Positions 2,849-5,125 of a stretch of DNA of 5,125 nucleotides are shown piece by piece. Made by a program: the position numbers and the translations under genes. The number at the start of each line of letters is the position of its first letter. The first letter of the stretch is position 1. This DNA is from a virus (taxonomy: Duplodnaviria; Heunggongvirae; Uroviricota; Caudoviricetes). The notes beneath the pieces were generated by a model, which saw nothing but the letters and a program-made list of their open reading frames with translations, made no database searches and was not told the origin of the DNA. The stretch lies in IMG/VR virus record IMGVR_UViG_2617270949_000004; one strand, given 5' to 3'.

Positions 2849-3136
2849 TTAAAGTTCGTGTGCCATCTGGTATTTTTCGGCGCATTGCTTACAGCAGTAT
2901 TTATGCTCCTTACGTGCAATAAGGGAACCGTGCATATAAATAATTTCAGCGGTAAAGGCTTTTTCAGGTTCAATTTGTTTATTACAGAGCGTATATGCAC
3001 AGGGAATTAAATCCGGGTCACCCTTTTGCTGGAGGATTTTTCTGATTCTCCACAGCCATTTTTTAATTCCGGTGTGACTGATGGTCTGCCTGGAGGCAGG
3101 CGTAAAACAATAATCAAGCATGGGGTTCATATCCAT
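2849..3136 (-). CDS. Small cysteine-rich zinc-ribbon protein in the ydaE position (YdaE-like); 95 aa, or 93 aa if it starts at the ATG at 3130
   Basis: Complete minus-strand ORF MDMNPMLDYCFTPASRQ...CAYTLCNKQIEPEKAFTAEIIYMHGSLIARKEHKYCCKQCAEKYQMAHEL, with a CxxxxC...CCxxC cysteine pattern. GGAG lies upstream of the start region. There is a 74 bp gap to racC and a 10 nt gap to the upstream Rha gene, consistent with one operon. Positional equivalent of ydaE/kilR in Rac. Confidence 0.6.
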   Translation of the reverse strand: MDMNPMLDYCFTPASRQTISHTGIKKWLWRIRKILQQKGDPDLIPCAYTLCNKQIEPEKAFTAEIIYMHGSLIARKEHKYCCKQCAEKYQMAHEL

Positions 3137-3146
3137 AGCTCCATTT

Positions 3147-3701
3147 TTATTTTAAGGAAAGCAACTGCTCTACGGTCATATTTTTAATTGCGCTCCGGTT
3201 TACAAGAGTCCAGCCTTGTTGCTCCAGATAAAACAGGAAGGTATCCAGGGTGCAGACCATTGCGCCGTCAGGAACGGTTTCAGTGAATTTGATATTGCCG
3301 TGTTCGTCGAGACGGATAACCAGGGTGCGTCCGTCCCCGTGAATCATTTTGTCGGGAGACGGGGCGTTATTCTGGCGCAGTTCAGCTTCCATGCGGTCGA
3401 ACTCAGCAATGTATGCCTCTTTAAATGCAGCGGCTTTTTTGCCAGTGAAGCCCATCACCAGGAAAACGAAGCCGTTTTTGGTGATTTGGTACATTGGGAG
3501 TTTGCGCCCGGTTGAGTCGGTGTATTCGCTCGACACAAAATTGTGCTCAGTGAATTTTGCTGAACAGTCCAGATTGCGAATTTTATCCAACACTCGTTCG
3601 TGGCGTTTGCCAAAGAACTCGGCGATCGCAACAGACGTAGTGACAGCGCGACCATTTTCGATGGTTACGTCAGGGTGAGAAAGGGTAAGGATAGTAGCCA
3701 T
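3147..3701 (-). CDS. Phage regulatory protein of the Rha family (antirepressor-like), about 184 aa
   Basis: Minus-strand ORF with start at ATG 3701-3699, preceded by GGAGG 8 nt upstream; stop at 3149-3147. N-terminus MATILTLSHPDVTIENGRAVTTSVAIAEFFGKRHERVLDKIRNLDCSAKFTEHNFVSSEYTDSTGRKLPMYQITKNGFVFLVMGFTGKKAAAFKEAYIAEFDRME fits the Rha-domain pattern (FGKRHxxVLxxIRNL ... Y.D..GR....Y.IT..GF..LVMGFTG.KA..FK..YI..F). The in-frame upstream extension to 3998 crosses a terminator hairpin and is considered less likely. Confidence 0.7.
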   Translation of the reverse strand: MATILTLSHPDVTIENGRAVTTSVAIAEFFGKRHERVLDKIRNLDCSAKFTEHNFVSSEYTDSTGRKLPMYQITKNGFVFLVMGFTGKKAAAFKEAYIAEFDRMEAELRQNNAPSPDKMIHGDGRTLVIRLDEHGNIKFTETVPDGAMVCTLDTFLFYLEQQGWTLVNRSAIKNMTVEQLLSLK

Positions 3702-3865
3702 GATGGCAGCCTCCGCGATGAATTTGATTAACTCACCACCGAGGTTTTCCACGACCATAAGGGTGGTGAGACGTACAGGGGTGGAAATACCGGTCATCAC
3801 GGAACCCGGCCAGCCTTGCGGCTGCCCTGCACGCCCCACCATAATGCGAATGTGGCTGTGCTTAA

Positions 3866-3898
3866 CGCATAAAAAAACCGCCTGAGCGCGGTTATGCG
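3866..3898 (-). terminator. Putative rho-independent terminator in minus-strand orientation, upstream of the Rha gene
   Basis: Minus-strand RNA would read CGCAUAA-CCGC-GCUCAG-GCGG-UUUUUUU-AUGCG: a GC stem (AACCGC/GCGGUU, loop GCUCAG) followed by a run of 6-7 U. Outer arms CGCATAA/TTATGCG add a larger imperfect palindrome. Confidence 0.5.
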
Positions 3899-4063
3899 CC
3901 GTGAATGATTTCGGGTTTCCACGCCCGGCACCCGTTTTATGAGGTGCAGGTGCACTATAATTCCACCCGTTCTGGTTTTCAATAGCTACATTCAACATTT
4001 TCTCTACCTTTCATCACCGAAGTGAACTTTGTTGATGCGGTGCCTGGTGCCTCCAGGTGATGT

Positions 4064-4084
4064 TAACCAGTTAACAATTAACGC
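4064..4084. repeat. Three closely spaced (G/A)TTAAC repeats (GTTAAC-CA-GTTAAC-AA-TTAAC); candidate protein-binding/operator-like site
   Basis: Direct reading: gttaac at 4064-4069 and 4072-4077 (each self-complementary), then attaac at 4079-4084; preceded by a CCTGG-N5-CCAGG inverted repeat at 4046-4060. No function can be assigned from sequence alone. Confidence 0.25.
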
Positions 4085-4554
4085 CGGATACAGAGAATCC
4101 ACCCATAACACTGTTTTTGGTTTTAACTGTTCCGCGTGCGCTGAGCCGCATTCACCGCATCACAAAATTCACTTTAAAAAGGGCGGCAGAGCAGTCACGG
4201 AGTAAAACTGATACCGCCAAAAGTCACCAGAAAATTGATAACAGAGGGCGTTGCAGCGGAGTTGTTACTTAAGCGTATGGTCAACCTGACAACCCGGTGT
4301 CCTCAACGGGGGAAGGAATACCCCCGCCATACTTACCGCCGCGCCATTTCGCGGAGTGCCACAACCGGAAGCGCACGGTCGAACTAAATTTAACGACACC
4401 GTACAGAGAGACCAATTTCGCCGTGCGCTTTCGCGTTATGCCCTGACTTTTCAGGGACATATCCTTTCAGTAAACTGTCAGTGCCGGATGTTCACCCGTG
4501 TCCGGCGCACGCACTCCACCTGACCCGTGGAGAACTCCTTAATTACCAACCCTC

Positions 4555-4560
4555 AGGAGG
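4555..4560 (+). promoter_or_regulatory. Shine-Dalgarno sequence AGGAGG for the downstream plus-strand ORF
   Basis: AGGAGG ends 5 nt before the ATG at 4566. Confidence 0.55.
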
Positions 4561-4565
4561 GTGAA

Positions 4566-4772
4566 ATGGATAAAAAGCAAATTGAGGCCCTGCAATCTAT
4601 TATTGAAAAACAAGATGAAGCTATCAGGATTCTTTCATATCGCACTGATATGATACTAAATATGCTTTCTGCATTAACGGCTGCGCTTGGTGGTACAAAA
4701 ACAAACGTATACCGCGAAGTTGTTATTCAACAGATAGATAAATTTGAAAAAACCATACCAGGTATTAGGTGA
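4566..4772 (+). CDS. Hypothetical prophage protein (68 aa as it stands), probably 3'-truncated by the IS1 insertion; sits where sieB lies in Rac
   Basis: ATG at 4566 with a strong RBS. Product MDKKQIEALQSIIEKQDEAIRILSYRTDMILNMLSALTAALGGTKTNVYREVVIQQIDKFEKTIPGIR. The last sense codon AGG spans the host/IS1 junction and the TGA stop (4770-4772) lies inside the IS1 left inverted repeat GGTGATG. The upstream GTG at 4527 used by the track is less likely. Confidence 0.55.
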   Translation: MDKKQIEALQSIIEKQDEAIRILSYRTDMILNMLSALTAALGGTKTNVYREVVIQQIDKFEKTIPGIR

Positions 4773-4790
4773 TGCTGCCAACTTACTGAT
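4768..4790 (+). repeat. IS1 left terminal inverted repeat (IRL)
   Basis: GGTGATGCTGCCAACTTACTGAT at the element boundary. The flanking host sequence is ...ACCATACCAGGTATTA; the target-site duplication cannot be confirmed without the right end. Confidence 0.9.
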
Positions 4791-4822
4791 TTAGTGTATG
4801 ATGGTGTTTTTGAGGTGCTCCA

Positions 4823-5098
4823 GTGGCTTCTGTTTCTATCAGCTGTCCCTCCTGTTCAGCTACTGACGGGGTGGTGCGTAACGGCAAAAGCACTGCCGGA
4901 CATCAGCGCTATCTCTGCTCTCACTGCCGTAAAACATGGCAACTGCAGTTCACTTACACCGCTTCTCAACCCGGTACGCACCAGAAAATCATTGATATGG
5001 CCATGAATGGCGTTGGATGCCGGGCAACCGCCCGCATTATGGGCGTTGGCCTCAACACGATTTTCCGCCATTTAAAAAACTCAGGCCGCAGTCGGTAA
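4823..5098 (+). CDS. insA: IS1 InsA (transposition regulator, N-terminal part of the InsAB' transposase), 91 aa
   Basis: GTG start at 4823, stop TAA at 5096-5098. Product [91 protein letters not shown], with a zinc-finger CxxC...CxxC and a helix-turn-helix region. Confidence 0.95.
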
Positions 5099-5125
5099 CC
5101 TCGCGCATACAGCCGGGCAGTGACG
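5017..5125 (+). CDS. insB: IS1 InsB (transposase catalytic part), 5' portion only; continues beyond the window
   Basis: ATG at 5017 in the -1 frame relative to insA, at IS1 position 250. Translation [36 protein letters not shown]... is open to the window end. Confidence 0.85.
5072..5080 (+). promoter_or_regulatory. IS1 programmed -1 ribosomal frameshift site (TTAAAAAAC, A6C motif) producing the InsAB' transposase
   Basis: TTAAAAAAC lies in the insA frame just before its stop, in the insA/insB overlap, as in IS1. Confidence 0.8.

Follow-up and report, generated by a model that had tools for sequence, protein, structure and literature searches.

An IS1 insertion truncating a small gene within the early-left operon of a Rac-like Escherichia coli prophage

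Known systems and the locus under study

A full IS1 is about 768 bp long; insA, which encodes a zinc-ribbon plus HTH protein, lies directly inside the IRL, and the element further comprises insB', a frameshift site and the IRR. On insertion, IS1 gives a target-site duplication of 8-10 bp. In the classical cases of IS1 insertional inactivation, known from gal/lac and from cryptic prophages, the junction falls at the exact terminus of the element, the inverted repeat provides the stop codon of a shortened coding sequence, and the site lies inside a polycistronic unit. The locus described here displays each of these features, with the difference that IS1 is known here from its left 358 bases only.

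With regard to position, the closest described counterpart of the interrupted gene is sieB of Rac, lambda and P22 (PF14163), which is a plus-strand gene within the minus-strand early-left operon, flanked by the kil/sRNA region on one side and by the DUF1391 gene and the repressor on the other. In Rac the order is recE-racC-ydaE-kilR-kilS, followed by sieB on the plus strand and by ydaF(DUF1391)-ydaG-racR. In IS-free relatives of the present prophage, exoVIII-RacC-like-YdaE-Rha/Ash-dicB remnant-DicF is followed by the small gene on the plus strand and by 133-aa-(ydfC-ydfB)-DUF1391-repressor, so that the small gene occupies the same slot as sieB. However, it encodes 92 aa instead of 162-192 aa, its product is predicted to be soluble and helical while SieB is a membrane protein, and the two share no sequence similarity.

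The early-left operon itself is best compared with the dicBF operon of Qin (ydfABC-dicF-dicB), whose promoter dicBp is repressed by DicA. In Qin, transcription begins at the DicA-repressed promoter in front of ydfA, DicF is released from this transcript by processing, and an internal promoter was not detected (PMC10448788). The present operon likewise has a full-length DicF, located downstream and on the same strand, a DUF1391 (ydfA-like) gene and an adjoining repressor, and ydfB and ydfC are found in some relatives of this prophage. In contrast to Qin, dicB is a remnant here and is followed by a Rha/Ash module with C4- and IsrK-like RNA motifs, and the ydf genes are separated from DicF by a 133-aa gene and the antisense 92-aa gene.

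The window, i.e. the whole stretch of 5,125 nucleotides that was analysed, is the entire draft contig JNPP01000124.1 of assembly GCA_000703785.1 and stops at IS1 base 358. The prophage is a Rac-like lambdoid one, integrated beside ompW in E. coli. Its features around the insertion are collected in Table 1. The explanation that we favour, with a probability of roughly 0.8, is that IS1 transposed into a genuine gene of 92 codons at codon 68, inactivated this copy and severed the early-left unit from its promoter.

Table 1. Positions and strands of the features around the IS1 insertion (window coordinates)
Feature	Position	Strand	Remarks
DicF small RNA	4181..4232	-	Rfam RF00039, 75.8 bits, E 5e-16, full length
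-10-like hexamer TAAACT	4471..4476	+	possible promoter for the small gene itself; weak, putative
Structured 5' leader, three hairpins	4482..4559	+	conserved, compensatory changes
Hairpin 1	4482-4507	+	
Hairpin 2	4514-4532	+	
Hairpin 3	4535-4559	+	CUCCU pairs with Shine-Dalgarno AGGAG
Shine-Dalgarno AGGAGG	4555..4560	+	5 nt before ATG, read directly from sequence
Truncated small gene, 68 codons	4566..4772	+	copy of 92-codon prophage gene WP_000358771.1, phrog_18692
Candidate hybrid promoter toward DicF	4752..4781	-	-35 TTGGCA in IRL, 18-nt spacer, TGnTATGGT in flank
Prophage/IS1 junction	4767..4768	.	last prophage base 4767, first IS1 base 4768
Left 358 bases of IS1	4768..5125	+	IRL 4768-4790, insA 4823-5098

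The junction between prophage and IS1

The junction was placed by alignment of the window with the annotated IS1A of E. coli K-12 and with IS-free loci. On the first alignment, IS1 base 1 (GGTGATGCTGCC...) falls on window position 4768 and the match to IS1A extends to 5125, which represents 358 bases with 5 mismatches. The inverted repeat GGTGATGCTGCCAACTTACTGAT is identical to the annotated K-12 IS1A end, and the InsA ORF matches PF03811 (3e-21) and PF12759 (1.7e-30), which identifies the element as IS1. On the second alignment, IS-free loci read ...CCAGGTATTA followed by ATGCTCATC... while the window reads ...CCAGGTATTA followed by GGTGATGC..., and given this divergence the junction lies at 4767/4768. 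The small ORF starts at ATG 4566, has 68 sense codons and ends with TGA at 4770-4772. Its final sense codon AGG (4767-4769) straddles the junction, since the A belongs to the prophage and the GG to IS1, and the stop codon is supplied by the IS1 inverted repeat. The first-pass annotation had described a 68-codon ORF with a strong ribosome-binding site, a last codon spanning the host/IS1 junction and a stop codon from IS1, and it was correct in every detail.

The same junction is present in three draft assemblies, in which the divergence from the IS-free reference occurs at one identical base, and the 68-aa product is identical in public gene calls on three contigs. An assembly chimera as the source of the junction was ruled out, as three assemblies break at the same base. 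Hence, this is a real transposition junction, common to a lineage. The two further assemblies stop about 30-55 bases earlier inside the same IS1, and a contig end of this kind is what assembly usually yields at a multicopy element.

All statements on the right side of IS1 are drawn from synteny with other strains, and a simple insertion is assumed. In such an insertion, the right end of IS1 would be joined to ...ATGCTCATCTTGCAGAACAAG, and 8-10 bp of the left flank would be directly repeated there; the right junction would then read ...GGAGTCATTACC (or ...GCAGCATCACC), followed by CAGGTATTA (the 8-10 bp repeat) and by ATGCTCATCTTGCAG... A chimeric ORF over this predicted right junction has no in-frame start codon. 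The junction was found in none of 5,426 complete E. coli genomes; the left junction gave no exact-pattern match among GTDB species representatives, nor did the predicted right junction among metagenome contigs, and a homologue search with the right-hand neighbour gene gave no identical entry.

Adjacent deletions are among the known effects of IS1. Given this property, the fact that all three junction contigs end inside IS1 and the absence of either junction from the collections searched, the element could instead mark a rearrangement (an adjacent deletion, an inversion or IS1-IS1 recombination), so that IS1 would no longer adjoin the immunity region and the remainder of the prophage. We consider this rather unlikely. 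Breaks in a multicopy IS are a normal outcome of short-read assembly, no positive sign of a deletion was seen, and an independent IS3-family insertion located 13-29 bp away in another strain (L015) is a simple one with the prophage continuing rightward; the site therefore tolerates simple insertions. We thus keep to a simple IS1 insertion in what follows.

In other strains, further elements are found in the same gene. The IS3-family element, of 1.3 kb, lies at about codon 78 (L015/L016, 5231-6566) and displays an unusually long flanking repeat of 15-17 bp. In L017/L018 (junctions at 3093 and 3067, respectively) an IS10 end lies 3 bp to the left of the IS1 insertion, and L019 (1-127) has an IS629-like end at codon 4/5. 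The idea of an IS hot spot in the small gene was dropped, given that the gene is uninterrupted in 125 of the 127 complete E. coli genomes carrying it. Detection of elements via called proteins is, moreover, biased toward 3' insertions.

The interrupted gene, its leader and its relatives

In IS-free prophages with identity of up to 100%, the same gene is an ORF of 279 nt that encodes a hypothetical protein of 92 aa (WP_000358771.1). The 468 bases left of the junction show 99.4-99.8% identity in many E. coli chromosomes, and the 2.4 kb left of the junction are 100% identical in strain 600029. Since the ORF of the IS-free relatives has 92 codons, 25 codons have been removed by IS1; the IS-free 3' end is ACC ATA CCA GGT ATT AAT GCT CAT CTT GCA GAA CAA GAG AAA GAC CAT GCT CTT ATG GCA ATT TCT TCA GTA GCT CTC CCG AAA GTT GAG TAG. 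The window allele keeps native residues 1-67, has N68 changed to R and lacks residues 69-92, i.e. the last 25 residues are exchanged for one arginine and the IS1 stop codon. The intact allele spans the whole 92-position profile of phrog_18692 (1-92/92, E 5.9e-63), a PHROGs family of unknown function, whereas the window copy covers only positions 1-67. The first-pass annotation had proposed that the native protein was longer and is now disrupted, and the IS-free homologues, which run 25 codons further to 92 aa, bear this out. The opposite case, in which the gene would naturally end at this position, fails on the 92 positions of the family profile and on distant relatives having the same length and the same C-terminal motif.

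The lost part contains 4 of the 12 family-invariant residues (E75, K76, S85 and P89). In AlphaFold2 models (mean pLDDT of 78 and 71 in two runs) helices are predicted at residues 3-41, 48-59 and 69-84, the truncation removing the predicted third helix. Judged from conservation, the truncated 68-aa copy is most likely non-functional. Several database variants (e.g. E. coli DEC2C) show a frame switch at the A-run 4746-4751 in GAAAAAACC, with ...VLMLILQNKRKTMLLWQFLQ as the frame-shifted tail; they represent either independent frameshift alleles or sequencing errors.

Exhaustive and profile searches retrieved distant relatives with 33-49% identity in Salmonella, Klebsiella and metagenomes. They are all 90-98 aa long and have a C-terminal EK...S.....P motif in common. 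Compared to the Salmonella copies (71-73% amino-acid identity), dN/dS is 0.17-0.25 and the differences by codon position are 20/11/32 and 19/11/31, with third positions in excess. These dN/dS values, the constant length and a conserved structured leader show that the 92-codon ORF is a genuine coding gene. A spurious ORF, arising by chance antisense to the early-left transcript or naturally ending at this position so that nothing functional was disrupted, could be argued from the lack of a known function, of any curated family match and of any occurrence in the sequenced-phage collection. However, the low dN/dS, the length and C-terminal motif kept down to 33% identity, the full-length match to the PHROG profile, the canonical Shine-Dalgarno with a strand-specific leader and the 25 further codons of IS-free copies all speak against it, and we hold it to be extremely improbable.

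The 92-aa protein has no hydrophobic segment, its peak 19-residue hydropathy being 0.93 against a threshold of 1.6. Searches of the protein in Pfam, NCBIfam and PADLOC gave nothing above noise; in Pfam neither the 68-aa nor the 92-aa form had a match at E<=1. A RelB-like match (E 0.011, 16 bits) was rejected, as the cut-off is 50 bits. No match was obtained in a PDB sequence profile search with the 92-aa protein, none below E 0.4 with Foldseek against BFVD and PDB, and none by tblastn of the gene against 50,697 sequenced-phage records. A literature search by accession of the protein returned nothing. The product would be a small soluble helical protein, unrelated to SieB, and its role is most likely that of a lysogen-expressed accessory ('moron') function.

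A convergent minus-strand gene overlaps the small gene at its 3' end. The overlap is 41 nt in L014 (11405-11445), L007 (6242-6282) and L020 (4239-4279) but only 21 nt in L023 (4277-4297). The convergent neighbours, of 71, 109, 133 and 171 aa, are unlike in their N-terminal parts and share a C-terminal tail I(K/A)xTxLSxELLKK that is encoded in the overlap; thus the overlap travels with the small-gene module. Within the 3' overlap dS is lower.

Upstream of the gene, the leader folds with an MFE of -33.9 kcal/mol (z -2.5). The hairpins present in E. coli persist in Salmonella and, in part, in Klebsiella, also where the flanking sequence has diverged. In an alignment of 7 leaders, 93% of the cells pair, compared to 37-47% with the partners slid, and 7 double-change cells are present, a number reached by 0 of 500 shuffles. 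In this small sample of 7 leaders (alignment A8) the covariation is no more than suggestive of a conserved structure. GGAGG is invariant in the four closest leaders and GGAG is found in 7/7 of the alignment. The conserved G-U pairs of hairpin 1 make the structure fit the plus strand only; these G-U pairs and the lack of a T-run led us to reject the hairpins as a minus-strand terminator or processing site. Rfam held no family for the leader even at E<=1.

A hexamer TAAACT, TAAGCT or TAAAAT precedes hairpin 1 by 5-8 nt in 3 of the 4 aligned leaders, in a stretch of diverging flanks, the fourth (L011) having only a shifted, weaker TATTAA/TTAAAG-like sequence, and TAAACT itself falls below the threshold of the consensus promoter scan. 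The module would thus consist of a -10-like element, a three-hairpin leader masking the Shine-Dalgarno and the ORF, and would be self-contained.

The gene had also been noted to sit at the place of sieB in Rac, with a superinfection-exclusion function as a possible consequence. The position holds but the SieB identity does not. Indeed, BLASTP against Rac SieB gave no alignment at E<=100, PF14163 had no match in the small protein compared to 1.5e-31 for Rac SieB, and Rac SieB has 10 hydropathy windows of at least 1.6 with a peak of 2.19 where the small protein has none. SieB identity was rejected on the lack of similarity, of a PF14163 match and of a membrane segment. The truncated gene could still be a functional analogue of sieB, acting in exclusion or abortive infection, and the insertion would then have removed a phage-defence function. 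The slot and orientation are those of sieB in Rac, distant relatives likewise lie next to repressor or integrase genes and run on the plus strand, opposite to early genes on the minus strand, and the gene has its own leader and ribosome-binding site. However, PADLOC defence models gave no match for the small protein, SieB similarity is lacking as described, the product is predicted to be soluble, and a function is not predictable from position alone. An exclusion role is therefore unlikely in our view, and the accessory function proposed above is preferred.

The early-left operon downstream of the insertion

In IS-free relatives the DUF1391 gene, a racR-like repressor, a cro/ydaS-like gene and ydaT are located 0.5-1.5 kb right of the insertion point, and thus IS1 lies between this repressor/immunity region and the early-left genes. 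Such a separation had been suggested by the first-pass annotation; synteny with IS-free relatives supports it, and for this prophage it is the expected arrangement. The same synteny places the 133-aa minus-strand gene to the right, its stop codon 37 bp before the insertion point in the direction of early-left transcription. DicF follows about 535 bp after the insertion point and is the first recognised element of the operon on that side. DicF is itself downstream of the DUF1391 gene and repressor in the IS-free relatives, which makes this a DicF-containing early-left operon.

IS1 insertions are classically polar in either orientation. On account of this polarity and by analogy with Qin, the early-left genes would be disconnected: IS1 probably blocks repressor-controlled transcription into DicF and beyond. 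The repressor-controlled promoter would be cut off from DicF and the Rha/antirepressor-like module and also from YdaE, the RacC-like gene, exonuclease VIII, xis and int.

A different outcome is conceivable given the candidate hybrid promoter of Table 1. The insertion could have rewired the left arm by creating a repressor-independent promoter, formed by IS1 and the flank on the minus strand (4781-4752), that drives antisense transcription across the truncated ORF, into DicF and further on. The IS-free sequence is without an equally good -35 at that spacing and, according to a passage of PMC8764528 that cites Prentki et al. 1986, IS1 creates hybrid promoters if a -10 is at the right distance. 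Against this, the candidate is a consensus match of 9/12 with an 18-nt spacer and an imperfect -10, the promoter scan found 3 sites compared to 1.2 +/- 1.2 expected in the region, which is not significant, and most IS1 insertions were found to create no active promoter (PMC8764528). Partial restoration of leftward transcription by the hybrid promoter is speculative, and rewiring of the left arm appears improbable to us. A combined scenario, in which a lysogen-expressed accessory gene with a Shine-Dalgarno-masking leader acts, as sieB does in that slot, against incoming phages or else on the host, and IS1 both destroys it and, by way of a hybrid promoter, makes DicF repressor-independent, seems very unlikely. 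The reading that we retain is that of an inactivated gene and a severed early-left unit.

Further downstream, the dicB remnant (4028-4111, minus strand) is annotated as a partial pseudogene in near-identical genomes and the Rha, YdaE and RacC-like genes come next, while other relatives have an intact dicB after Rha. This comparison suggests dicB as the site at which the Rha module inserted or recombined. Full-length Rfam matches to C4 antisense RNA (3759-3846, minus strand, 81.9 bits) and isrK (3871-3947, minus strand, 67.7 bits) lie inside a 283-aa 'Rha family' ORF (3147-3998, minus strand). Both fall on the part of this ORF that matches Pfam 'Phage_ASH' (residues 14-109), whereas the Rha domain begins at residue 120. 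The N-terminal third of the Rha ORF may in reality consist of RNA genes belonging to an immI-like C4/antirepressor module; the true start of Rha would then lie inside the ORF.

The event is of a known kind. Indeed, IS1 insertions that cut short accessory prophage genes and disrupt prophage operons are routine in prophage decay, and the present case is ordinary. Two points are mildly new: the interrupted gene is a member of a small and uncharacterised prophage family that is genuinely coding, and this family has a conserved structured leader. In Enterobacteriaceae prophages, phrog_18692 and its relatives combine coding character, constant length, a structured leader and a sieB-like placement, and the family is therefore a reasonable candidate for a lysogeny-associated function. 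Furthermore, the natural IS1 allele together with near-identical IS-free strains offers a ready comparison for the function of the gene and for the promoter dependence of DicF.
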